From Scenedesmus sp. PABB004 (lineage: Eukaryota), in NCBI GenBank assembly GCA_014905635.1, contig JABVCE010000011.1, positions 248,001 to 312,000 on the forward strand: a stretch of DNA of 64,000 bases, in the 5' to 3' direction. Under the pieces are notes generated by a model. That model was not told where the DNA came from, made no database searches, and saw nothing but the letters and a program-made list of their open reading frames with translations. This document shows, piece by piece, positions 8,958 through 64,000 of the stretch. A program made the position numbers and the translations under genes. Each line of letters opens with the position of its first letter. Position 1 is the first letter of the stretch.

Positions 8958-9360
8958 GCGCGCCGGCTCGGTGCGCGGGGGAGCTCGGCATCCAGGGAGC
9001 TAGCGACGCGTGCCGGGGCGCGAGGCAGAGGGCGGGCTTGATATCGGGTCGCGCGCTGCGGCCGCGCGGGTGGCCCCGGCGGGCGGCGGCAGCGCGTGTG
9101 TGCCCCGAGCGGCGGCGGCAACCGCCCGGCCGCCGCACCGCCCTCAGCTCACAGCACCAGAGCCGGACCACCACTGCGCAGCCCCGCCGGGGTCTGGCGC
9201 TTCTAGGTCGCTGCCGCCGTTGCCGCCGCCCAGGCCGCGCCCTCCGCGCCGCCCCGCACACAGCCCGCCCGCGCCCCCGTGCCGCGGTCCCGCTTCATCC
9301 CGCCACCGCACCGCCGCTCGCCCTCCCGCGGCCCCAGCGCGCCGCCGCGGCGCCGCGCAG

Positions 9361-11173
9361 ATGGCGTGCCCGCTGCTCGCGGTGCTGGCGGCGCTGAACG
9401 ACGATGCCTGGTCGCAGGTGCTCGCGCCCAAGCTGCTGGAGGACGGGGGCAGCGCCAGGGCCTTCGCTCTGGCCTGCAGGGAGGCGCGGCGCCTGGTGCG
9501 TGGCGGCGATCATGCCGCGCGACGTCCGGCCCCTGCCCGGGCGCCGCGTTGACGACCACCGGCGCTGGCTGTCCACGCTGCACGAGCGCTTCGGCGCCTG
9601 CAGCCGCGTGAGCTTCACAATCGCCAGCTCTGACGACGCGGCGCTGCACCTGCCCGCGCTGCTGCCAGCGCTCGCAAGGTGGGCGCGGGCGCGGCGGCTG
9701 CGGCGCGCGGCGCGGCGCGGTCGTCTGCGATGCGTGCGGCCCTGCAGCAGTCGGCGTGCCTGCCCGCACCCGGGAGGGGCCGGGAGTGCCGCTGATGACC
9801 GCCACCGCTGCCCGCCGCCGCCGGCCGCCCGCAGGCTGCCGCGGCTGGACACGCTGCGCCTGGAGGCAGCAAACGGCCAACTCAGCTCGCCTGAGAGCAT
9901 GGCGCCACTGCTCTGGGCGGTGGGTGGCGAGCTGCCGGGACTGCGGGCGCTGGAGCTCAAGCCAGTGGGCGGAAGCTGGGAGGGCAGCGACGCGGCGTGG
10001 CGCGCGATCGGCCGCGGCGCGACGCAGCTGACGCGGCTGGCTGTGGAGTTTGATGGCATGCAATGCCTCATGCTGGAGCACCTCTCGTCGCTGTCCGCCC
10101 TAAGCGCCCTGGCGAGCCTGTCGCTGGCCGAGTGCCTCGCGGCCGGCGGCCAGCAGTAGTACGGCTGGCTCGGCCGCCTGGCGCCGTCGCTCACGCACCT
10201 CGAGCTGCCCCTGGCCCGTGACCGCGCCGGTCTGGCCGCCGTCGCCGCTTGCACTGGGCTGCGGAGCCTGGCGCTCTGTGGTTGCAGAGATGGTTACATT
10301 GATGGTTACAACCAGGCAAGTTTGAGCGCGGCCGAGTGTGGCGCGCTGTCGCACCTGGTCGCGCCGACGCGGCTGGACCTTCTGTGCGTTGAGCAAGGCT
10401 CCGACCCGGCCCTGCTGGAGGCGGCGGCGGCGCTGCCGCTGCTCGCCGATCTGTGCGTCGGCGTCATGTCGCGCGCCGCGCTGCCGTGCCTGGCGCGCAT
10501 GACCGCCCTGACCAAGCTGAAGGGCTCGTGGACGTGGGACGGCGACGCGGCGGCGGGCCTCGTCCCGGCGGCGTGCCCGTCGGTGGTGGAGCTAGCGGCC
10601 CGGGGCGACGTGCCGTGGGCGGCGTTCCCGGGGCTGCGTGGGGCACACTTTTTGTCCTTGAATTTTGATGTGCGCAGCCTGCAGGCGCTGACGCAGCGCT
10701 GCACTGCGCTGATTTCGCTGCGCTTTGACCACGTGTCTGGCGACAGTGCCAAGTGCACGGCGGCGCTGCGCGGCCTGGCCCGCCTGCCCGCGCTGCGCGA
10801 GCTGGGGCTCAGCGTTGGCTATGGCAAAGAGGCCGCAGCGCTGTGGGACGTGACCCAGCTCACGCGCCTGGAGCTCGGGGTGTGCCAATTTGAAGACAAG
10901 ACTCGCTCGTTTCACGTGAAGCCATCTGACCTCGCCCTGCTGGGGCACAGCATGCCTGCGCTGCGCGAGCTGACAATGACCTGGCTGAGCAGCGCCGCCC
11001 TGTCGCTGGCCGACGGGGCGATGCTGCTCAGGGCGCTGGCGCACGTCCCGCGCGTCACGCTGCGCGTGAGCGGCGCCGAGGCGGCGGCGCTGCGTGCGGC
11101 GCTGGCGCGCAGCGATGCGCGCGGTTGGCCTCGCCCCGAGGAGCTCGTCCTGCCGCTCTTTGTCGAAGAGTGA
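9361..11173 (+). pseudogene. LRR (RNI/F-box-LRR-like) family copy 1, disabled
   Basis: Starts MACPLLAVLAALNDDAWSQVLAPK; intron 9679-9834; repeated LxxLxL motifs. Relative to the copies at 48205/54237 it lacks 8 nt (ACGGCAGC) at ~9499, causing a frameshift, and has TAG at 10157-10159 where paralogues have TCG/TCC/TGC. Confidence 0.8.
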
Positions 11174-26662: not shown

Positions 26663-28467
26663 ATGGCGCGCTCTCCGCGGCCGCTCCGCCTGCTGTGCAT
26701 CACGGCGGCGGCGCTGGCGCTGCTCGCGCCGCGCCGCGCGTCGGCGGGCGGCGGCGCGCTCGTGGACGCGCTCGTGCCGGACGCCCTGGCGTCCCAGCTG
26801 TCGGCGGCGCTCTCCTCGGGCGAGCTGCCGGTCAGCCAGCTCGACCTGCCCGTCTGGCGCCCGCCGGCGGGCGCGTGGCCGATGCCGACGCCGCACAAAG
26901 ACGTGCTCAACTTCAACACCTCCGTCCGCGTCGGCAAGGCCGCCAAGGGCGGCGTCATGGTGCTGGACATCCAGTGAGGCCGGGAGCCGCGGGGCGGCCC
27001 AAGAGGGGGGGGGGCAGGCCGCACGCGCTAGCCTTGCGCGCGCGGTAGCCTTGCGCACGCCGCCGCACACCCCCGTGTGCCGCCGCCGCCGCACCCCGCG
27101 CGCGCGTCGCAGCTTCAAGCCGCTTGCGGGCGTGAACAGCAGCCACGTGGTCTGGCTCTTCAACAACCTCCACGTGCGGGGCGGGGCACGGCAGGGCGCG
27201 CGGGGCACGACGGGGCGCGGCGGCGCGCGCACGCCGCCCCGGCGCTGCCAGTCAGTGACGGACACCGCAAGCCGCCGCTTGCGCCGCGCCCGCGCGCCGC
27301 AGCACAACGTGACGTACGTCGACCCCGCGGCGGGCACGCGCCGGCCTGTTCCCATGTACCTGCTGTTCCACCCGATCGACCACCTCTTCCACACCGCCAG
27401 CCCGCCGGGCGTCGTCAAGGCAGGCACCAAGTTCATCTGGTGAGTGCCTGGAAGCCGCTGCGGCGCGTGCGGCAGCGCCGGCGGGCGCTGGCGGCGGCGC
27501 CGCGGCGCGTGCGCGCACGCGCGAGCCCGCCGCCGCCTGCCCGCCCCGCGCGCGCGCGCGCGCGCGCACGCGCAGGTGCGAGCTGCCGCTGACGGGCTGC
27601 ACGTACCAGCCGGCGAGCGCGACCGAGCCCTGGGTCTGCCCGGCCGCGCGGCGCGGCTTTGTGCGCGCCGACCCTCCGAGCGCGTGGGGCCCGGTCATGC
27701 ACACCAAGGTGGAGCAGGAGGTGGTGGCCTTCAACGCGTCCACGATGCAATTTGTGGCCAAGCACTACAACCCGGCGTGCGGCGCCGCGGCGCGCGCTGC
27801 GCACGCTGTGTGCAGCTGCCCGGCTGCGGCGCGACCCGCGCGTGCACTGCCGCCGACCGCCGACCGCCGACTGCCGCCGCAGGTTTGGCGGCGACGGCGT
27901 GCGCACCGTCACGACCGTGACGCACAGCTGGGCCGACTCGCCGCAGGGCCTGCGCCTGCGCACGCAGATGTGGTGCGGCGTCACAGCCGGCGCGGCCTTG
28001 GGCCGCAGCGCTTGCGGCCCCCTCGCGCCTCCCTCGCGCCACCGCCCCGCCCGCCCGACCGCCCCGCCCGCCCAACCGCCCCGCCCGCCCAACCGCCCCG
28101 CCCCGCCCACCTCGCAGGATGGGCCTCATGGCTCGGGGGAGCCACTCCGCGTTTGACACGAGCCTCGTCGGCGTCGCGGCCAACCACGTCATCGCGGCCA
28201 GCTACGTGGGCGGCGCGAGTAACGTGCCCCCGGGCAACGTCACCGCCGCCGCTTACATGGCGGTGCACCACTACGTGCAGGCGCGCGAAGCCCGGCCGCC
28301 CGCACGCACGCTGCGCTTGCCGGCGGCGCAGCGCGAGACCGCGTTGGCCGGCGCGGCCGACCGGCAGACGGCGCGCCGCCGCCGCCGCTCGCGCGCGCGC
28401 GCAGGAGTATGGCGGCACGCGCTTCTGGCTGCCGGCGGTGTACAACAGCCGGCCCCGCGCCACGTGA
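26663..28467 (+). CDS. Secreted DAPG hydrolase (PhlG)-like metallohydrolase
   Basis: Signal peptide, then spliced LAGVNSSHVVWLFNNLH, MYLLFHPIDH, FIW/CE, VTHSWADSPQGLRLRTQMW/MG and VHHYVQ/EYGGTRFWLPAVY. These match the PhlG pattern Y..WHP..H / E / H...RSRFW / H...E...FLP.LY. Six introns, the last (28281-28404) GC-AG. Confidence 0.65.
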
Positions 28468-28775: not shown

Positions 28776-30664
28776 TCACTCCGCGGGCGCCGCCGCACCG
28801 CCCGGCGGCGCCCGCGCGTCTGCGCGCCGCGCGGCCAGGACCGCGCGCGCCGCCGCGACGCCCGTCGCGTGCGCGCCGTGCACGGTGCCCTGGTTGGCCG
28901 CCGACGCCGCCTCCCCCGCCCAGAAGAGCGCGCCGCACGGCTCGGCCAGCGCGGCGATGTGTGCGGGCGTGGCGCCGGGGGGCATGCACGCGAACGACCC
29001 CCGCGCCCAGGGGTCGGCGCCCCAGCGGCTGACGAGCGCGGCGCGCGGCGCCCGCGCGGCGCGCTCGTCGCCCGGGCACATCGCCGCGACGACGCCGGTG
29101 ACCTGCGGGGCACCGCGGCGCGGCCTGGCGTGGCGCGCCCAGGGCTCGCGCGGCCGGCCGGCGCGCAGCCGCGACCGCGCGCGTGCGCGCTCGGTGCGCG
29201 CGCCGCGGACCGCACCTGCTCGACGAGCGCGGCGCCGCAGTCGGCGCCCGCGGCCCACGCCGGCCCGCCCGCGTTGAACGCGACGAGCGCCGCCGGCGCG
29301 GCGCCGCCGCCGAGCCGCTCCGCGTACAGCGCGGCGTTGAACAGCTCCTGCCAGCGCCCGGCCAGCGGGTCGGCCGCGGGGGCGGCGGGCGGCACGCGGT
29401 TGAGCCACGCGCGGCGCGGCCAGAAGGGCGCGGCATCGTACAGCAGGACCACCTGCAGCGGCGCGGCGTGGAGGGCGGCGCGGGGGCAGCGTGGAGGGCA
29501 GTGCTTGCGCGGGCGGCTAGGCGCAGATGGGCCGTGCACGCCCAGCGCGCAGCGTGTGCACACAGCGCACACAGCGCGCAGCGCACAGCACGCCCAGCGC
29601 GCGCAGCGTGCCTTGTCGAGCAGTCCCACGCCGAGCGCGTCGATCGCGGCGGCCTTGCCGGCCGGCAGGGGCGGCTCGAACAGCGCGCCGTGGCAGGCCT
29701 TGAGCACGCCCAGCGGCAGCGTGACGACGGCGTGCCGCGACGTGAACGCGGCGCGCCCGCCCGGCGCCGCCGCGACGACGCGCACGCCGGCGGGGCCGTG
29801 CGCGACGCGCGCGACCGCGTGCCGCAGCCGCACGGCGCCGGACGGCAGGCGCGCGGCCGCCGCCGCGACGGCGGCGCCGAGGCCGCCCGCGACGAGCGCG
29901 TGCGCCCCCGGGCAGGGCGCGTCGTGGTCAAAGAAGCGCGCGCACAGCGCGTCCGCGCCGGCGCCGTACTCCTGCTCTATACGCGTGTTGACCATCGCGC
30001 CCAGCCACGCGCGCTCGCGCGGCGTCAGCGGCGGCGCCTGCGCCGCGGCCCACGCGTCGCGCGCGGCCGCGACCGACTGCGGCGGCGCCGCGCCAGCGCC
30101 CGCGCCGGCGCCGGCGTCCGCGGCGGCGGCGGCGTCCTGCAGGCGCGCGAGGTGCGCCTCGAAGCCAGCAAACAGCCGCTCGCACTCGGCGCACTCGTCC
30201 GGGCTCAGCGGCGAGCCGTCCGCTGCGTGCAGCGCGTTGTCGGTCGGCGCGGTGGCCACCGTGCGCAGGCCCGCGGCGGCGGCCGCCGCCGCCACCGGGT
30301 TCGCCGCCGGGTCGTCGCCGTGAATCCAGCTGCATGGCGCGATGCGGCGGCGGCGGCGGCGGCGGCGGCGGGGCGCGCACGGCGGTCGGGTCGGCCGGGG
30401 CGCGGTCGCGCGCCGCCGCGTGGCCCGCCTGCCCCCCCCCCCCCCCCCCAAACACACACCTCGCCCCGAGGTCCACCACCGCCGGCGCGTCGCAGCCGGG
30501 CAGGTCGAGCTCCACCGTGTGCGCGCGGCCGCCGACGCGGCCGCGCGCCTCCAGCACCACCACGCGCAGGCCGGCCGCGTGCAGCTCGGCCGCCGCCGCC
30601 AGGCCAGCCATGCCCGCGCCCAGGACCAGGACGTCTGCGTCCTCCTCAGTGGGCGGGCTGCACC

Positions 30665-30702
<38 letters not shown>

Positions 30703-31841
30703 GGCCGCTCCTGCTGCTGCGACCGCTCCTGCTGCTGCGGCCGCTGCTCCTGCCCCTGCTGCTCCTGCGCCGCATGCTGCTGCTCGCACCCTTGCTGGCG
30801 CCGCTCCCCCTCCTGCTGCTGCCGCGCCTGCTCCTGCACAAACTCGCGCACCGCGGCGCGCAGCACGTCCCGCGACTTGGTGTAGTGATACTCGAGCTGA
30901 GCCTGGCAGTACGCGTGCCTGCGGCGCCAGGCGCAGCGGCACGCTCATGTCAACCGGCGCGCCGAGCCTTCGCATCGCCGGCGCCGCGCCGCCCCCGGCC
31001 GCGCCGCCCGGCGCCCCTCACCGCGGGTCGGTGCGGCGGCCGGCGATCGCGCGCAGCGCCGCCCACTCGCGCCAGTGCTTCGCCCACGCCGCGAGCCCGC
31101 CCAGCGCCGCCAGCCGGCCGACCTCGGCGGCCGCTGCGGCCTCGAGGTCGGGCGCGGGGCAGGGCAGCGGCGCGCAGGCCGCCGCCGCGTCGGGGCCGGG
31201 CGCGTCAAAAGTGACGACCGCGCGCAGCGCCAGCCACGGCCCCAGGCGCGCGTGGACCGCGAGGTGGCTCGCCGGGCTCACAAACGCGAGCCCCGAGACC
31301 TCCGCCGCGCGCAGCATGTCAACGAAGCGGCCCCCGGGCCCGCGGCGTGCCCGAACCGCACCGCCACGCGCACGCAGCGCGGGCAGCGCGGCGCGCCGCC
31401 GCCGCCGGCCGCGCCGCCGCCGGCCGCGGCGCCGCTGCCCCCGCGCGGCTCGCCGCTCGGCGCGCCGCTCGCGCCGGCGGCGCAGTGCGCACACGTCGCG
31501 GCAGCGGCGACCGCGGCCGCGAGCGCCGCCTCCACATAGTCGTCCAGCGGGTGCGGCGCGGCCAGCGCCTCGGGGCGGGCCGCGAGGTGGGCGAGGAAGG
31601 GGCGCCAGAGCGCCGCGCCGTTGCCAACCAGCACCGCGAGCGCGTCCGGGCGGCCCCAGTCGGGCAGGCGCCCGTCCGGCGGCGCGGCCGCGTTGAACGC
31701 GGCGGCGGGGAACGGCTGCGCGACGGTCAGGCCCGCCGCCGCGAGCGGGCCCGCGAGCGCCGCGGTCAGCGCCGCCCAGGACGGCGGCGGCTGCTGCTGC
31801 TGGTGCTGGGAATCGCAGCCGCCGTCGCTGCTGCCGGGCAT
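28776..31841 (-). CDS. CblC/MMACHC-like domain fused to FAD-dependent amine oxidase (polyamine oxidase/LSD-like)
   Basis: The N-part has LAVLVGN..LW..F, HPLDDYV, MLRAAEVSGLA, VHARLGPWLALRAVV, HWREW..LR and Y...QLEYHY. The same exon continues without a stop through a Gln-rich linker into VLVLGAGMAGLAAA..L...VVVLEARGRVGGR, DLGAS/WIHG, VVTLPLGVLK, RWGADPWARGSF and WAGEA....GTVHGA. It needs a 1-nt correction at the C5 run 31331-31335. Confidence 0.8.
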
Positions 31842-32285
31842 GCCGAGCTGTGGACGCTGGCGGCAGAGCACCGCCGCCGCCGCCGCCGCCGCGGCCGCTG
31901 CCGCCGTCGCCGCTGCTGCCGCTCCCGCTGCTGCTGCTGCCGCCGCTGCGGCCGCGGCTGCGGCTGCGGCTGGCGGCGCCAGTCACATCTGCCACGCACA
32001 CGCAGAGTTAGGCGCGCTGGTGCTGCTGCGAGTGGGAACACCACACAACAGAACGCCGCCGCCCCGCGAGCGTCACTGTGTTCAAACTTGGTTCAAACGA
32101 TCATCAGGCTTCACGCGCCATCCCCTGCTGCCCGCAGCCCACGCGCCCGCACTCCTCGCGACGCCCAGGCCCTCCCGCTCGCAGGTCGACGCCCCGCCCG
32201 CTCTCAGAGCCGAGAGCCCGCGCCATCGCCCTTGCCCAGCAGCCCCGTCGCGCAGCGCCGCCCAGCGCCGCCGCAGCCAGCCAGG

Positions 32286-33903
<1,618 letters not shown>

Positions 33904-34436: not shown

Positions 34437-37325
34437 ATGCACGACCGGCGCGGGCGCAGCGGCGTCAACACGAACGGCGTGGTTAATCCTGACGCGCTGG
34501 CGCCGCCCGCGCCGGGCGCCTCGCGGCGCAGCGGCGGTGGCTCGCAGCGACCCCCGACCTGGGCGCTGGGCTGCGTGCTGGGCCTCGCCCTGCTGGCGAC
34601 GTGGAGCCTGGGACGGCTGTCGGCGCACCACCTCGCCCTGGGCGCGTCAGGCGGCGCCGGCGGCGGCGACGGCGGCGCGGCGCTGCAGGCGCAGCTCGCG
34701 GCGCTCGCCGAGCAGCAGGCCGCCACGCTGCAGCTGCTGCGTGGGTTGAGCCTGCATGCCAACATGTCCGCGCCGCTGGGCAACGCCAGCGCGGCCGACG
34801 AGGCGCCGCCGGGCAACGCGTCGGCCGGCGCCGCCGCGCTGCCGGCGCTCGCGGCGCTGCCGGCGCTGACCAAGCTCCACAACGCGGTGCTGCGGCGCAG
34901 CAAGGACTACGACGCGCACCGCGCGACGCTCGGGGGCCTGCTCGGCCGCCTCGTGCGGCTGCCGCCGGGCGACGCGGCGGCGGTCGTCGCGGCGGCGCGG
35001 CGCGCGGAGCGCGACCCGCTGCGGCGCTTTGCGTTTGAGCTCTACGGCCTGCTGCTGCGCAGCGAGCGCCTGGTGCCGTGCCGCGAGGACACGAGCTTCG
35101 TGCCGTGGGACGCGCGCGCCTCGGTCGACACCTGGCCCGCCGAGGCTCGCGAGGCGGGCGCGGACGCGGCGGGCGAGGAGTACGAGTCCGATGCCGACGC
35201 GGCCGCTGCAGAAGCGGCAGCTGCAGCTGCAGACGCCGAGGCTGACGCGGACGCCGACGCAGACGCGGCAGCTGGAGACGGCGACGGCGGCGGCGGCGGC
35301 GGCGCGCCGGGCACGGCGCGCGTGCTCAGGGACGTCAGCCGCAGCGGGCGCAGCAGCGCCGGCGGCGGCGGCGGCGGCGGCAGCAGCAGCAGCAGCAGCA
35401 GCAGAGGCGGCGGGAGCGCAGGCGGCGGGCCCGCGCCGCCGCGCCCGCCGCCGGCCCCGGCGGCCGCTCCGCCGGGCGGCGGCGCGGCCGCTGGCGGCGC
35501 AAAGGGCGGCGCCGGCGCCGCGCCCGGCAGCCCGGCCGCCGGCAGCCCGGCCGCCGGCAGCCCAGCCGGCGGCGGCGGCGGCGGCCCCGGGCGTTACTTC
35601 ATCGCGACCAACCTGCGCGACAACGGCGAGCAGATGCCGCACTTTGTGCTCTCCCTGCTGCGCACGCTGCTCGCCGTGCCGCGGGGCCGCGCGTTCGTGA
35701 GCGTCTATGAGTCCAACAGCGACGACGGCGCGCACGGCTGGATCGACGTGCTGGGGCTGGCGCTCAACCTCATCGGCGCGCCGTCGCGCCTCGTCGCGCG
35801 CGGCGGGCTCGTGCGGCGCGAGGGCCAGCACCGCATCCAGTACCTCGCCCAGGCGCGGCGCGGCGTGGCGCGGCGCGGCGCGTGGCTGCGCGGCGCGTGC
35901 TGCGCCGGGGAAGAAATGAAGAGCCCCGCCCGCGCGCCGCCGCCGCCGCAGGTGCGCAACATGGCGCTCGCGCCGCTCTATGAGTTCCACGCCGCCGGCA
36001 GCGCCGCCGCCCCTGCTGCTGCTGCCGCTGGCAGCGCCAACGCGAGCGCCGCGGGCGCGGGCGGCGCGCGGCGCGGGCGCGCGCCGGCCGCGCCCGGGTC
36101 GCTCGCGTGGGCGCCCGACTACGTGGTGTTTGTGAATGACGTCTTCTTCTGCCCCGGCGGCCTGCTGCGCCTGCTCACCTACCGCGCCGACATCACCTGC
36201 GGCACCGACTGGTGGCAGAACAAGGGTGGGTGACGGCGGCGGCAGCGCGGCCGGCGGCAGCATGGCAGCGGCGGCGGGGGCGGCGGCGGGGCGGCAGCCG
36301 CGGCAACCGCGGCATGCTGACGCACGCGCCGCCGCCGCGCGCGGGCGCGCGCGGCGCGCAGACGCGACGGTCGCGCTGCCGGAGCGCCTGCGCAGCAAGG
36401 CGCACGCGCCCAAGCCGGCGCTGCCGCCGGAGCTGCGGCTCGAGGCGCCGCTGCCGCGCGGCGCCGCCGAGTTGGGGGACGCAACAAACCCCATCGTCTT
36501 TTACGACATCTGGTGCGGGCGCGCAAAGCACTTGCGGCGCACGCGCGGGGCGCGGCGGCGCTCGTGGCGCACGCGCGCGTGCCTCGCTGCGTCAGCGTCC
36601 GCAACGGCGCGCGCGGGGCCGCCTGCCCGCCCACCCGCTGCCCGCGCGCCCGCCCGCGCGCACGCAGGGTCGCGCGGGACGTCGCGGGCGACAAGTTTTG
36701 GTGGGCGCACCCGTTTGTCACGCACGAGCCCTCGGCAGCCGCGTTTGAGAAAGGCGAGCGCGGCGGCGGCGCTCGGGGCTCGCCGGCGCGCCGCGCCGCA
36801 CCGCGCCGCCCTGTGCGACCCGCCGCCGCCGCCTCGCCGCCGCCGCCGCCGGGCGCAGGCCTCCCCATGCGCGCGAGCTGCTGCTGGAACGGCCTCGCCG
36901 TCCTCCGCGCGGCGCCGTTTGCGGCGGGGCTGCGCTTCCGCGCGCACGAGGACGGCGAGTGCGCGGGCAGCGAGTGCAGCCTGCTGTGCGACGACTTCGC
37001 GCGCCTCGGGCTGCGCCGCGTCGTCGTGGACGCGGGCGTGCAGCTGGCGTACGACTACGGCCTCGCGCGCGAGATGGCGGCGGTTGGCGTGGAGGGCGTC
37101 GGCGCGAGCAGCTGGGCGCAGGTGCTCGCGGCGCGCGGCGCCGCGGCGGCCGGCGTCGCGCCGGACTACGACTCGATCGAGTGCTGCGGGCTGCGCCCGG
37201 GCGCAAAGTGGGTCAACTTTTTCCGGGACTGCGCGCCGCGCAGCGTGCTGGAGACCAACTGGACCGCCGCGGCGCTCGCGCGCGGCGGCGACGGCGGCGG
37301 CGAGCGGCGGCGGCGGCGGCAGTAG
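34437..37325 (+). CDS. GT69 / CAP59-like alpha-1,3-mannosyltransferase (type II membrane)
   Basis: N-terminal TM, YFIATNLRDN, FVSVYESNSDD, RIQYLAQ/VRNMALAPL, VVFVNDVFFC, FYDIW/VARD, SCCWNG, ECAGSECSLLCDDF. GC-AG introns at 35853-35951 and 36754-36858. Confidence 0.92.
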
Positions 37326-47565: not shown

Positions 47566-48204
47566 TGCGGCCGCCGGCTGCCGAGCCCGGCGGAGGGGCG
47601 GGGGCCGCGTCCGGCGCGCTGCGCGCGAGCGCCCGCGGGCGGCGCGTGCCTGGCGGTTTGATCGATGCTTCTTTTGCGAATCAATCAGTCTCGGAGGATT
47701 GGAGGCCTTGCGGCGCGTTGCGAGCAGGCGGCGCATGTTGCACGGCGCATGCTGCACGGCGCGCGCGCAGTGCACGCGCGCGCGGCCGCGCGGGCGCGCC
47801 GCGATTTTGCTTGGCGTGGCGCCGCCGGCATGCACGTCGCCTTGCTGTGTCTGACTTTTGATGGCCGTCGCGTGGGACCGGGTTTGCGCCGCCGCCGAGT
47901 TTTTGCGCGCGAGGTTGGAGAGTTGACGAGCGGCGCACAGTGCAACACACCGGCCTTCCCCACACCGGCCTCCCCCCCCCCCCCCCCCGGCAGCGAGCGC
48001 CCGCGCCAGCCACGACCCGTTCCGCCCCGCCGGGGTCTGGCGCTTCAAGACCGCTGCCGCCGCTGCCGCCGCCCACGGCCGCGCGCCTCGCGCCGCCCCG
48101 CGCACAGCCCGCCCGCGCCCCCGCGCCACGGTCCCGCTTCATCCCGCCAGCGCACCGCCGCTCGCCCTCCCGCGGCCCCAGCGCGCCGCCGCAGCGCCGC
48201 GCAG

Positions 48205-49967
48205 ATGGCGTGCCCGCTGCTCGCGGCGCTGGCGGCGCTGAACGACGACGCCTGGTCGCAGGTGCTCGCGCCAAAGATGCTGGCGGACCGGGGCAGCGCC
48301 AGGGCCTTCGCGCTGGCCTGCAGGGAGGCGCGGCGCCTGGTGCACGGCAGCGTGGCGGCGCTCAAGCTGCGCGACGTCCGGCCCCTGCCCGGGCGCCCCG
48401 CCGACGACCACCGGCGTTGGCTGTCCACGCTGCACGAGCGCTTCGGCGCCTGCAGCCGCGTGACCTTCACAATCGCCAGCTTTGACGACGCGGCGCTGCA
48501 CCTGCCCGCGCTGCTGCCGGCGCTCGCGAGGTGGGCGAGGGCGCGGCGGCTGCGGCGCGCGGCGCGTCGCGGTCGTCTGTGCTCCGTGCGGCCCTGCAGC
48601 AGTTTGCGTGCCTGCCACGCGCCCGGGAGGGGCCGGGAGTGCCGCTGCTGACCCGCCGACCGCCCGCAGGCTGCCGCGGCTGGACGCGCTGCGCCTGGAG
48701 GCAGCAAACGGCAACCTCAGAGCGCCAGAGACCATGGCTCTGCTGCTGAGCACGGTGGGCGTCCAGCTGTCAGGCGTGCGGGCGCTGGAGCTGGAGCTGT
48801 GGGGCAGCAGCTTGGAGGGCAGCGGCGCGGCGTGGCTCGCGATCGGCCGCGGCGCGACGCAGCTCACGCGGCTGGCTGTGGAGTTTGATGACCAGGACCG
48901 ACGCGTCACGCTGCAGCACCTCTCGTCGCTGTCCACCCTCAGCGCTCTGGCGAGCCTGTCTCTGGCCAAGTGCCGCGCGGCCGACGGCCAGCAGTCGTAT
49001 GGCTGGCTGGGCTGCCTCGCACCGTCGCTCACGCACCTGGAGCTGCCCCTGGCCGACGACCGCGCCGGCCTGGCCGCCGTCGCCGCCTGCACGGGGCTGC
49101 GGAGCCTGGCCCTGTCTGGCAGGAGCGATCAATTGGGGCTGAGCGCGGCCGAGAGCGGCGCGCTGGCGCGGCTGGCCGCGCTGACGCGGCTGGACCTGGC
49201 CGGTGAGCAAGGCTCCGTCCCGGCCCTGCTGGAGGCGGCGGCGGCGCTGCCCCGGCTCGCCGAGCTGCACGTCCGTGGCCTGTCGCGTGCCTCGCTGCCG
49301 CACCTGGCGCGCATGACCGCCCTGACCAAGCTACAGGGCTGGTGGAACGGCGAGCAGGCGGCGGCCGGCCCAGTGCCGGCGGCGTGCCCGTCTGTGGTGG
49401 AGCTGGCCGGCGGCGGCCGTGGCACGCCGTGGGCAGCGTTCCCGGGGCTGCGCAATATCAGAATTTGGGACGACGAGATGCACGCGCGCCACCTAAGGGC
49501 GCTGGCGAAGCACTGCACCGCGCTCACGGCGCTGGCGTTTTGGGGCGCTGACGGGGTCGACGACGAGGGCGTGGCGGCGTTCCAGAGCCTGGCGCGCCTG
49601 CCAGCGCTGCGCGTGCTGGACGTGCAGGGCACCTGCGAGTTTGAGCACCTGGCCGCGCTGTGCACAGGTCACGCGCCTGGCGCTTTTTTGGCAGCCCTGT
49701 GCGGCGAGCCTGGCCGTGCTCGGGCGCATGGCTTCGCTGCGGGTGCTCAACGTGGACTTCATACCTGAGCATCTCATTGACGGCGATCGCACGGCTGGCC
49801 TCTCCGCGGGCAACAGCGCGGCGGTGCTGCTGAGCGCGTTGGCGCACGTCCAGCGCGTCGCGCTGCGCGGCCTGGGCGAGGAGGCCGAGGCGGCGCTGCG
49901 GGAGGCGGGGTGGCATGCAGACGCGTACGGGCTACCGAAGCCTAGAGTGCTGGACATCCTTGAGTGA
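48205..49967 (+). CDS. LRR family copy 2 (frameshift near 3' end; truncated product or pseudogene)
   Basis: MACPLLAALAALNDDAWSQV; intron 48531-48669; LRR motifs. The frame shifts at ~49660-49666: the main frame stops at 49768 while the homologous tail QVTRL...ALAHVQRVALRG lies in another frame ending at 49967. Confidence 0.75.
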
Positions 49968-53946: not shown

Positions 53947-54236
53947 GCCGCGAGCGCGGCGCGGCGGCGCGCGTGTTGGCCCCGAGCGGCGGCGGCAACC
54001 GCCCAGCCCATTGCCCTCAGCACCTCACAGCCATCGCCCGCTGGCCTGCTGCGCCGCCCTGCCGGGGTCTGGCGCTTCAAGACCGCTGCCGCCGCTGCCG
54101 CCGCCCACGGCCGCGCGCCTCGCGCCGCCCCGCGCACAGCCCGCCCGCGCCCCCGCGCCACGGTCCCGCTTCATCCCGCCAGCGCACCGCCGCTCGCCCT
54201 CCCGCGGCCCCAGCGCGCCGCCGCAGCGCCGCGCAG

Positions 54237-56418
54237 ATGGCGTGCCCGCTGCTCGCGGCGCTGGCGGCGCTGAACGACGACGCCTGGTCGCAGGTGCTCG
54301 CGCCAAAGATGCTGGCGGACCGGGGCAGCGCCAGGGCCTTCGCGCTGGCCTGCAGGGAGGCGCGGCGCCTGGTGCACGGCAGCGTGGCGGCGCTCAAGCT
54401 GCGCGACGTCCGGCCCCTGCCCGGGCGCCCCGCCGACGACCACCGGCGTTGGCTGTCCACGCTGCACGAGCGCTTCGGCGCCTGCAGCCGCGTGACCTTC
54501 ACAATCGCCAGCTTTGACGACGCGGCGCTGCACCTGCCCGCGCTGCTGCCGGCGCTCGCGAGGTGGGCGAGGGCGCGGCGGCTGCGGCGCGCGGCGCGTC
54601 GCGGTCGTCTGTGCTCCGTGCGGCCCTGCAGCAGTTTGCGTGCCTGCCACGCGCCCGGGAGGGGCCGGGAGTGCCGCTGCTGACCCGCCGACCGCCCGCA
54701 GGCTGCCGCGGCTGGACGCGCTGCGCCTGGAGGCAGCAAACGGCAACCTCAGAGCGCCAGAGACCATGGCTCTGCTGCTGAGCACGGTGGGCGTCCAGCT
54801 GTCAGGCGTGCGGGCGCTGGAGCTGGAGCTGTGGGGCAGCAGCTTGGAGGGCAGCGGCGCGGCGTGGCTCGCGATCGGCCGCGGCGCGACGCAGCTGACG
54901 CGGCTGGCTGTGGAGTTCACTGGCGTGCAACGCATCACGCTGGAACACCACTCGTTGCTTTCCGCGCTGGGTGCCCTGGCGAGCCTCTCGCTGGCCGGGT
55001 TCTGCGTGACTGACGGCCGTCAGTCCTACGACTGGCTGGGCGGCCTGGCGCCGTCGCTCACGCAGCTGGAGCTGCCCCTGGTTCGTGACCGCGCCGGCCT
55101 GCCCGCCGTCGCCGCCTGCACGGGGCTGCGGTGCCTGGCCCTGGATGGCGCAAATGATCAATTGGGGCTGAGTGTGGCCGAGTGCGGCGCGCTGGCGCGG
55201 CTCGTCGCACTGACGCGGCTGGCCCTTCTTGGCTATGAGCAAGGCTCCGACCCGGCCCTGCTGGAGGTGGCGGTGGCGCTGCCGCGGCTGGCGGAGCTGC
55301 ACGTCGCCGGCCTGTCGCGCGCCTCGCTGCCGCACCTGGCGCGCATGACCGCCCTGACCAAGCTTGAGCGCTCGTGGATTTGGGACGACGCGGCCGCGGG
55401 CCTCGTGCCGGCGGCGTGCCCGTCTGTGGTGGAGCTGGTCGGCGTCGGCATCGTGCCGTGGGCGGCGTTCCCAGGGCTGCGAAGGGTGCGGTTTTGGGGC
55501 CGCATGGAGGCGCCGCACCTGCAGGCGCTGACGCAGCACTGCACTGCGATGACGGCGCTGCGCTTTGCCCGCGTGCACGGCAGCAACGCTGCGTGTGTGG
55601 CGGCGCTGCATGGCCTGGCCCGCCTGCCCGTGCTGCGCGAGCTGGACATGGACGCGTCTGCGTTTGACCACCTGGCAGTGCTGAGCGCGGCCACCCAGGT
55701 GACCTGCCTAGGGCTGAGGATTGTAGACAAAGGCGAGGTCCCTTTCACCGCGGCGAGCCTGTCAATGCTCGGGCGCATGGCCTCGCTGCGGGAGCTCATG
55801 GTGAGCTTCCCGCAGTGCAGCGGCGGTGCGCTCAAGCTTGCCCCAGGCGACGACGACGTGGCGGCGCTGCTGCTGCACCTGCAGCACGACAGGCGCGTCG
55901 AGCTGCACGGCGTGGGCGCCGAGGCCGAGGCGGCGCTGTTGTTGGCGCAGGCACGCGCCGACGCATGCGGCCTGCCGCGCCTGCCCCGCGGAGCTCGTCG
56001 TGGTGAAGTGAAGGCTGGCTGCTGGTTGGCGCGGCTCTTGCGTGCGCCACGGCTCTTGCGCGTGCCGCGTGCTGTGTCCGCCGCATGCTGTCGAGTTGAC
56101 CAGGTGGTTGTGGGCAGGGGCTGGCCTGCGCGCCGGAGGGCGCGGTCGGGGTGGCGCCGCTGCCATTCACTCCCCGCACCCCAGCAACAACCGCACGGGG
56201 CGCGCGCCGGCCACGAACCGCCCCTGTGCCCTGCGCCCTGCGCCGCCGTGGTTGCAGCGCGCCCCTCGCGCCTCCAGCCCGCACATCCCACCGGGCCCCC
56301 CGATCCGCCCCGGGCCGCCCTCGCGACGCCGCTCGGCCTCCCGCGCCCCCAGCGCGCCGCAGCAGCAGCAGGCACTCCGCAGCGGCCGCTGCCGCGCGGC
56401 TCTCCGCGGCTGCGGTGA
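54237..56418 (+). CDS. LRR family copy 3 (4-nt insertion at extreme 3' end extends the frame)
   Basis: Same start as copy 2; intron 54563-54701; intact LRR region. An extra CTGC at ~55981 bypasses the homologous ending PAELVVVK* (56011), so the frame runs on to 56418. Confidence 0.8.
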
Positions 56419-62411: not shown

Positions 62412-64000
62412 CTACGCGATGGTGCTGTGCACAATGAGCTCCGCGGGGCGCGGCAGGCCGCACGCGTCGGCGCACGACAGCGCTGCACGCAGCGCGCCCT
62501 CGGCCTCAGCGCCCACCCCGCGCAGCATGACGCACCTGACGTGCGCCAGCGCGCCCAGCAGCGCCGTCCCCTCGGCCGGCGACGTGCTGGCGGAGCCGCC
62601 CGGCCAGTCCACCTCGAGCGCGCGCAGCTCGGGCATGCTCCGCCCCAGCGCGGCCATGATCAGCGGGGGCACTGACGTCGGCTGCGGCAAAGCAAACTCG
62701 CCATTGTCATCAACTCTGAGATCATCGATGCAGACACGCAGGCGCGTGAGCTGGGTGACCTCGTACAGCGCCGCGGCCTGCTCGCAACACTTGATGGTGA
62801 GCTGCAGCTCGCGCAGCGCGGGCAGGCGGGCCAGACCGCGCAGCGCCGCGACGCACTCCAGTGCGTCGCCGCTCCAACGCATGCCGCCGACGCCCAGCGC
62901 CGTCAGCGCAGTGCAGCACTGCGTCAGCGCCTGCAGGTGGTGCGCCGCCATGTAGCCCCGAGACTGCATCCTCCGCAGCCCTGGGAACGCCGCCCACGGC
63001 ACGTTGTCGCCGCCGACCAGCTCCACCACAGACGGGCACGCGGCCGGCACTGGGCCCGCCTCCGGTGCGTCGTCGTCCCATATCCACGAGCCCTGCAGCC
63101 TGGTCAGGGCGGTCAGGCGCGCCAGGTGCGGCAGCGCGGCGCGCGACAGGCCGGCGACGTGCAGCTCCGCCAGCCGCGGCAGCGCCACCGCCGCCTCCAG
63201 CAGGGCCGGGTCGGAGCCTTGCTCAACGCACAGGAGGTCCAGCCGCGTCAGCGCGACGAGCCGCGCCAGCGCGCCGCACTCGGCCACACTCAGCCCCCGT
63301 TGATCGGTCCTGCCAGACAGGGCCAGACTCCGCAGCCCCGTGCAGGCGGCGACGGCGGCCAGGCCGACACGGTCGTCGGCCAAGGGCAGCCACAGGTGCG
63401 TCAGCGACGGCGCCAGGCCGCCCAGCCAGTCGTAGCACTGCTGGCTGTGGGGCTGACGGGACCCGGCCACCGACAGGCTCGCCAGGGCACCCAGCGCGGA
63501 AAGCAACGAGAAGTGCTCCAGCGTGACGCATTGGCCATAGAACTTCGCAGCCAGCCGCGTGAGCTTCGTCGCGCCGCGGCCGATCGCCCGCCACGCCGCG
63601 TCGCTGCCCTCCCAGCTGCTGCCCCCCAGCTCCAGCTCCAGCGCCCGCAGTCCCGGCAGCTCGCCGCCCACCGCCCACAGCAGTGGCGCCAGGCTCTCAG
63701 GCGAGCTGAGTTGGCCGTCTGCTGCCTCCAGGCACAGCGTGTCCAGCCGCGGCAGCCTGCGGGGCGGGCGGCGGCGGGCGGGGTCAGCCGCGGTGCTCTA
63801 AGCACTCCGCACAGCGGGCGCACACCGTCTGCTTCTGCCCAGCTGCCGCGCCACACACACGGGAATGCCGCGCCGCGCGCGCCGCGCCCGCGCCCACCTC
63901 GCGAGCGCCCGCTGCAGCGCGGGCAGGTGCAGCGCCGCGTTGTCGGAGCTGGCGATTGTGAGGCTCACGCGGCTGCAGGCGCCGAAGCGCTCGTGCAGCG
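62412..64000 (-). CDS. LRR family copy 4 (5' end outside window; visible part intact)
   Basis: LHERFGACSRVSLTIASSDNAALHLPALQRALAR / intron 63757-63897 / LPRLDTL...; open to TAG at 62412; same intron position as the other copies. Confidence 0.85.

Follow-up and report, generated by a model that had tools for sequence, protein, structure and literature searches.

In eukaryotes, incoming vitamin B12 is handled first by CblC/MMACHC, and the decyanation carried out by the human protein uses reduced flavin and requires an external reductase. Amine oxidases of the PF01593 family, which use flavin adenine dinucleotide (FAD), normally hand their electrons to oxygen (O2), forming hydrogen peroxide (H2O2). 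CblC is described as widespread in algae (PMC11439496), many of which are B12-dependent although their intracellular B12 handling has been little studied (PMC11439496). Here we describe a locus of Scenedesmus sp. PABB004 (contig JABVCE010000011.1 of assembly GCA_014905635.1, positions 248,001 to 312,000; this whole stretch of 64,000 nucleotides is referred to as the window) at which a single predicted gene of five exons (31841..28776, minus strand) encodes a CblC domain, a linker and an FAD amine oxidase (PF01593). Among everything examined, the predicted protein has a novel domain architecture, put together from two already known families. We hold with moderate confidence that the locus represents a genuine, lineage-specific gene fusion, in which one transcript would give rise to a three-part protein of 851-852 residues in a GC-rich (~80%), intron-bearing nuclear genome.

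The gene model was derived from positions 32100 to 28700 of the minus strand, read beside the stop-to-stop frames, with splice choices backed by homology. The predicted features, in the order of translation, are the following.

Exon 1, 31022..31841, minus strand: begins at the first in-frame ATG (31841) and carries most of the putative MMACHC/CblC domain, in two frames
Frames of exon 1, minus strand: frame A from 31841 to ~31336, frame B from ~31338 to 31022
G5 homopolymer run, 31331..31335, minus strand: the frame moves by one base inside the CblC domain, as though one base were missing
Intron 1, 30919..31021, minus strand: GT..AG, 103 nucleotides, no codon periodicity
Exon 2, 30460..30918, minus strand: predicted CblC tail, linker and Rossmann strand
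Start of exon 2, 30828..30918, minus strand: predicted CblC C-terminal helix (…YCQAQLEYHYTKSRDVL…), 20.6 bits on positions 217-241 of the family profile described below
Middle of exon 2, 30648..30827, minus strand: low-complexity Q/E/R-rich linker with a (CAG)12 run, assigned from its translation and codon G+C
End of exon 2, 30460..30647, minus strand: predicted FAD-binding Rossmann beta-alpha-beta unit (DVLVLGAGMAG…VLEARGRVGGR…DLGA), PF01593 at 6.1e-13 and PF13450 at 3e-12
Exon 3, 29612..30329, minus strand: predicted amine-oxidase substrate and FAD domain, with the conserved Lys as its last residue, PF01593 at 1.3e-12
Exon 4, 29216..29452, minus strand: VVLLYDAAPFW…, 79 residues, third-position G+C (GC3) of 0.99, canonical AG and GT splice sites
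Exon 5, 28776..29102, minus strand: predicted C-terminal FAD-binding part (…FWAGEAAS…GTVHGA…), stop codon at 28778-28776, PF01593 at 9.4e-15

All exons display a third-position G+C of 0.95-0.99 and a second-position G+C (GC2) of 0.41-0.74, and the four introns are aperiodic. Introns 1, 2 and 4 are of the GT..AG type. Removal of intron 1 joins …TDPR to HAYCQAQLEYHYTK and brings the C-terminal block of the CblC family back in register, and removal of intron 2 yields the sequence …VDLGA-S-WIHG…. Intron 2 also contains, at 30440-30455, about 16 consecutive C residues on the plus strand (read as G on the minus strand), near a (GCC)n-type repeat at ~30343-30375; because this stretch is a homopolymer, like the run at 31331-31335 where an assembly error is suspected (see below), it is a likely site of length error.

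The junction between the CblC and oxidase parts lies within one exon and in a single frame, and it is real in the present assembly. QLEYHYTK, the final conserved CblC helix, and the GAGMAG strand both fall in exon 2 (30918..30460), inside an open frame (29928..30944) in which HAYCQAQLEYHYTK… with the CblC tail, the linker and DVLVLGAGMAG follow one another in this order. An earlier note on this DNA, made from its letters, had pointed to a CblC-like terminal motif and the GAGMAG sequence joined in frame by a polyQ linker within one exon (~30460-30918), with neither a stop nor a separate ATG ahead of the Rossmann strand. Reading of the frame bears out this description: between the CblC tail and GAGMAG, the frame of exon 2 is free of stop codons, and the first Met encountered is that of GAGMAG itself. 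The linker, presumably disordered, spans some 60-65 Q/E/R-rich residues, including 12 consecutive Q, and its codon G+C in the coding frame (GC3 0.95, GC2 0.37) is like that of the adjoining coding parts. A separate start for the oxidase within intron 1 was considered and rejected, the ATGs found there being out of frame with the Rossmann strand. Because the frame contains no stop and no earlier in-frame Met, and the ATGs of intron 1 lie in another frame, the oxidase would be translatable on this DNA only as a continuation of the CblC frame.

These properties of the junction also bear on the possibility that the fusion is absent from the cell and that two unrelated CAG-repeat loci were joined by the assembly within the linker (~30650-30830). 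The low complexity of the linker, with its CAG and CAG-like repeats, and an architecture seen in no other organism examined are both consistent with such a chimera, but both frame and codon periodicity carry on through the repeat. Furthermore, the CblC tail continues here without a stop codon, whereas relatives end 1-87 residues past the motif, and the oxidase possesses no start codon upstream of its Rossmann strand. A chance join would require all of these junction features simultaneously, and we regard an assembly chimera as highly improbable.

The exon boundary just upstream suggests a different alternative, namely that retention of intron 1 produces a short stand-alone CblC protein and its removal the fusion. 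A TGA codon at 31020-31018 overlaps the donor of intron 1, such that retention of the intron would end the frame immediately, and the database models of the three closest relatives (P0001, P0002 and P0003) end exactly at this point (…TDPR/…TDPK). Since these models stop there, the position of the intron at …TDPR appears to be shared between the window gene and its stand-alone relatives, and read-through models may arise easily at this site. An intron-terminated product, however, would lack the conserved C-terminal helix that 105 of the best 150 relatives possess, and the truncated database models may merely be prediction errors. Alternative processing of this kind appears improbable to us.

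To characterize the N-terminal domain, we queried protein sequences exhaustively with HMMER using the 106-residue frame-B piece of exon 1. This search returned 337 relatives at E<=1e-3, 27 of them at E<=1e-10, with a best match of 2.6e-31 at 57% identity; identity to the nearest relatives ranges from 40 to 57%. From these relatives we built a profile (A2; 20 relatives, 243 positions) and an alignment (A1; 13 relatives). A read-through model of 851 residues, in which the frameshift was bridged with an X and the exons were spliced, matches profile A2 with 259.6 bits (E 1.3e-81), its residues 22-297 aligning to positions 4-241 of 243. Scored singly, the three pieces of the domain also match the profile colinearly: frame A with 92.2 bits (positions 4-99), frame B with 119.6 bits (114-212) and the start of exon 2 with 20.6 bits (217-241). 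The profile in turn matches human MMACHC (3SC0) at an E value of 2.9e-18 over chain residues 8-234. Nine of 12 scanned relatives reach the gathering score of PF16690, with one falling below it and two showing no match, and in the Atlas feature search the frame-B piece groups with PF16690 clusters (scores of 0.96, 0.94 and 0.93). The assignment of this domain to MMACHC in the earlier note, which had proposed a profile search as the check, is supported by these matches, and the N-terminal domain is predicted to be a complete member of the MMACHC/CblC family.

The MMACHC/CblC proteins act as cyanocobalamin reductase and alkylcobalamin dealkylase and have a nitroreductase-like fold that binds cobalamin base-off. 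Comparison with the described members (PF16690; human 3SC0, 3SBZ and 3SOM) indicates that the window domain matches them over their full length through the family profile and shares with them the …HP.FGPWFALR.VV… and …HWR.W..LR… blocks, as well as the C-terminal Y..Q..Y motif. The motif at the start of exon 2 aligns with the conserved C-terminus of the family in 10 of the 13 relatives of alignment A1 and, via the profile, with …RYSEEQKAYF… of human MMACHC, consistent with its being the true C-terminal helix of a complete CblC domain rather than a chance resemblance. The Arg residues of …WLALRAVV… and …WAALRAIAG… occupy the same profile columns as those of human …WFAIRGVV… and …WTYRDAV…, and a third column is unconserved in the family profile; the glutathione and ligand-pocket arginines of human MMACHC are R161, R206 and R230. 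In contrast with the described proteins, the window domain contains a Gly/Ala-rich insert of ~37 residues in its middle, its reading frame is shifted by one base in the assembly, the direct Pfam scores of its pieces fall below threshold, and its C-terminus runs a further 554 residues into a second enzyme, where relatives end within 1-87 residues.

The remainder of the predicted protein had been ascribed to the PF01593 amine oxidases in the earlier note, and here too the match holds. Exons 2, 3 and 5 match this profile in profile order, each above its gathering score of 19.8 bits: exon 2 on positions 1-44 (49.3 bits, 6.1e-13), exon 3 on positions 195-285 (48.2 bits, 1.3e-12) and exon 5 on positions 363-443 (55.3 bits, 9.4e-15). 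Exon 4 on its own gave no Pfam match; its 79 residues fit the 77-position gap between positions 286 and 362 of PF01593, and this colinearity, together with its canonical AG and GT splice sites, supports its placement. The N-terminal portion displays the FAD-binding GxGxxG strand, with the acidic residue ending the second strand (DVLVLGAGMAG…VVVLEARGRVGGR; PF13450 at 3e-12). The final K of exon 3 aligns with the K of spermine oxidase 7OXL (…GIGTTDK) and of LSD1 (…GFGNLNK), and the …vvL.F….FW block that follows this Lys in the oxidases here begins exon 4. We take this residue to be the conserved Lys near the flavin N5, corresponding to K661 of LSD1 and K300 of maize polyamine oxidase.

The closest solved chains are those of PAOX (N1-acetylpolyamine oxidase; 5LAE), spermine oxidase (SMOX; 7OXL), monoamine oxidase (8P84), maize polyamine oxidase (1B37) and LSD1, with E values of 4.7e-8 and 9.7e-8 for exon 3 against PAOX and SMOX and of 2.5e-8 for exon 5 against spermine oxidase 7OXL. 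These matches are modest (E 2.5e-8 to ~1e-5 per exon), and the chains are too distant for a substrate, be it spermine, spermidine or an acetyl-polyamine, to be assigned. In common with polyamine and spermine oxidases and with LSD1-type demethylases (5LAE, 7OXL, 1B37 and 2V1D), the window oxidase presents the Rossmann pattern GxGxxG…E…GGR, the conserved Lys, here closing …GLLDK, and the C-terminal FAD motif; its spliced junction reads DLGASWIHG. Its domain, at ~487 residues, is of typical length; unlike these enzymes, it lacks both a start codon and an N-terminus of its own, with the CblC domain and the polyQ linker lying ahead of it. Because it contains neither a SWIRM nor a tower domain, the window oxidase is not of the LSD1 type. 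The C-terminal part is thus predicted to be a complete FAD amine oxidase of the polyamine-oxidase type (PF01593), and on the evidence of these profile and motif matches we regard the identities of both domains as established.

The relatives of the CblC domain provide a measure of how widely this architecture is distributed. The best 150 of the 337 relatives are 76-440 residues long, and the 105 of them that cover the family profile to its end have tails of 1-87 residues (median 4), compared to 554 in the window protein. We also compiled 160 CblC-like loci (L001-L160) from metagenome and prokaryotic contigs, mostly from Myxococcota, Acidimicrobiia and Proteobacteria. No amine oxidase was detected near any of these 160 loci within the stored flanks, either by phmmer (8101 open frames of at least 80 residues, E<=1e-3) or by tblastn. 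Fused bacterial CblC proteins were also sought in long upstream stop-to-stop frames, and this possibility was discarded after the 13 longest frames, once scanned, contained no Pfam domain besides PF16690. None of the Atlas clusters among the matches listed contains both families, and no description of an MMACHC-amine oxidase fusion was found in the literature, a scope that did not extend to the supplementary tables of algal CblC homologues in PMC11439496. All of the stand-alone algal and bacterial homologues (P0001-P0150 and L001-L160) are single-domain, in contrast with the window gene, and none has an amine oxidase fused to it or nearby. The fusion therefore looks confined to this lineage among the relatives examined, which did not include the genomes of related algae.

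The same searches revealed that uncultured Myxococcota, Acidimicrobiia and Gamma- and Deltaproteobacteria commonly carry CblC/MMACHC-like genes (e.g. L081, L083 and L087). A total of 155 genome and 311 metagenome stretches with CblC-like genes passed in tblastn, and the bacterial loci score up to 272 bits on the algal-family profile, yet often fall under the gathering score of PF16690.

Several observations weigh against a genuine lineage-specific fusion. An open frame is easily come by at 80% GC and by itself counts for little, and the linker is a CAG-repeat region and hence a possible site of mis-assembly. The donor of intron 3 is a non-canonical GC (AAG|GCACGC) assigned from homology. No fused CblC-oxidase was present among the best 150 of the 337 relatives, and word-indexed protein searches limited to longer proteins (with the frame-B piece, with exon 3 and with profile A2, the last over 589-2000 residues) recovered no fused form, which is weak evidence. 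Direct matches of the window pieces to PF16690, scored one by one since a frameshift and an intron split the domain and its composition is extreme, remain below the gathering score of 27 bits (frame B, 11.4 bits, E 0.24; frame A, no match), and human MMACHC 3SC0 matches the separate pieces weakly (E 0.65); because these direct Pfam and PDB scores are weak, membership in the CblC family rests on the intermediate family profile. Finally, the frame that starts at the ATG stops, as assembled, at 31280-31278, after 187 codons.

This last point reflects the one-base shift at 31331-31335, which the earlier note had singled out as a feature that, if real, would uncouple the two domains. The shift is indeed present in the assembly, at a G5 run where the frame moves by one base, and reflects either an assembly error or a real inactivating mutation. 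The family alignment continues unbroken over the site with zero residues missing (…VRFGHAAGPG|GRFVDML…), one added G restores the frame, and the part upstream of the break shows no decay, scoring 92.2 bits over 96 profile positions and being as conserved as the part downstream. Given good conservation on either side of the break, a continuous alignment and the position of the break in a homopolymer run, we infer that a base missing from the G5 run through an assembly error is likelier than a real lesion. A small intron skipping the frameshift was also considered and rejected, since the sole nearby GT..AG pair would delete the conserved …RF.H……FVDMLRAAE block.

Were the frameshift real, the locus would be a recently inactivated fusion gene or would make a truncated product only, and we consider this unlikely. 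The break is present in the sequence, and the scarcity of other stops says little, as long frames persist by chance at 80% GC. Nonetheless, it is the single disruption in ~850 codons and occurs in a homopolymer run, the usual place of assembly indels, with a continuous family alignment around it, and the upstream part (profile positions 4-99) is as conserved as the rest. An in-frame Met directly follows the break in frame B, and a candidate product of a truly frameshifted gene would start at this internal Met of …FVDML… and comprise the C-terminal half of CblC and the oxidase, an outcome that we likewise find doubtful. If, on the other hand, the shift stems from the assembly, automated gene calling in this genome will break the gene up or cut it short.

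A genuine fusion would have arisen when a stand-alone CblC gene lost its stop codon together with the DNA that separated its final exon from the first coding exon of an amine oxidase gene, and the CAG-repeat stretch would then bridge the gap between the two exons. Each domain would be expected to keep the ordinary chemistry of its family: the CblC domain would strip incoming B12 of its upper ligand and pass reduced cobalamin to methionine synthase, and the FAD of the oxidase domain would serve to oxidise a polyamine-like secondary amine. What the fusion adds is most likely shared expression and location of the two domains, and not a novel reaction. This proposed chemistry of the individual domains draws on what is established for the two families and on PMC11439496 and PMC11910325.

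The earlier note had offered two explanations for the fusion, a functional link between B12 processing and amine or polyamine redox chemistry and a recent read-through fusion of neighbouring genes. A conserved link of the first kind finds no support in the comparisons above, in which no fusion occurs among the 150 best relatives, the search of longer proteins is blank (itself weak evidence) and none of the 160 loci has an oxidase nearby; by these same comparisons, a lineage-specific fusion is the better fit.

Functional coupling within the window protein itself would take the form of an oxidase FAD, reduced by the amine, that supplies electrons to CblC for decyanation or for the reduction of aquacobalamin, making the protein a self-sufficient cobalamin reductase. 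The idea is attractive in view of the flavin-linked chemistry of CblC, the human protein using reduced flavin for decyanation. In PMC11910325, Trichoplax CblC with NADH (reduced nicotinamide adenine dinucleotide) and FAD is reported to undergo spectral changes that suggest flavin-linked reduction of aquacobalamin. Fusion to a flavoenzyme is, moreover, a classical Rosetta-stone pattern. The pairing is nevertheless unconserved (0/150 best relatives fused, 0/160 loci with an oxidase neighbour), the long low-complexity linker gives no hint of a fixed interface, and the H2O2 released by PF01593 oxidases would harm reduced cobalamin. Coupling of the two domains is accordingly speculative, and we assign it a low probability. 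Its strongest version, in which the fusion is a self-sufficient cobalamin-processing enzyme with a tethered, polyamine-reduced FAD domain as the dedicated electron donor for CblC, we consider very unlikely.

The window in which this gene lies has a G+C content of ~75-83% throughout and carries intron-bearing nuclear genes, encoding PCNA, fructose-1,6-bisphosphatase, a mitochondrial carrier, a sugar transporter, a WD40 protein and a CAP59-like glycosyltransferase. The PCNA gene (32287-33900, plus strand; PCNA_N at 1.3e-30, PCNA_C at 1.3e-20) is arranged head to head with the fusion gene. The ATG of PCNA (~32287) and that of the fusion gene (31841) are ~446 bp apart, and the two genes therefore probably share a bidirectional promoter. 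On the other side of the fusion gene, a short direct repeat of cgccccgcccgcccaac-like units occupies 28030-28115 (plus strand), directly upstream of an exon starting at ~28120. The glycosyltransferase gene (35553-37310, plus strand) is of the CAP59 type (cryptococcal mannosyltransferase 1-like, PF11735), with two exons matching at 1.3e-10 and 8.8e-11. The window also contains four paralogous leucine-rich-repeat-like genes, at 9334-11119 (plus strand), 48172-49931 (plus strand), 54213-55980 (plus strand) and 62463-63998 (minus strand), which share a near-identical N-terminus (MACPLLA.LAALNDDAWSQVLAPK…); the segment 48172-48561 has no Pfam match.

As a Rosetta-stone hint, the natural joining of CblC to a flavoenzyme would point to the redox partner of CblC or to the pathway in which it acts. 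If the oxidase were indeed a dedicated electron donor, the fusion would name the physiological redox partner of CblC and would tie the supply of B12, and with it the synthesis of methionine and S-adenosylmethionine (SAM), to the SAM-consuming turnover of polyamines. If the fusion is merely a neutral, lineage-specific join, it would instead illustrate the ease with which multi-domain genes can be created in stop-poor, extremely GC-rich genomes.

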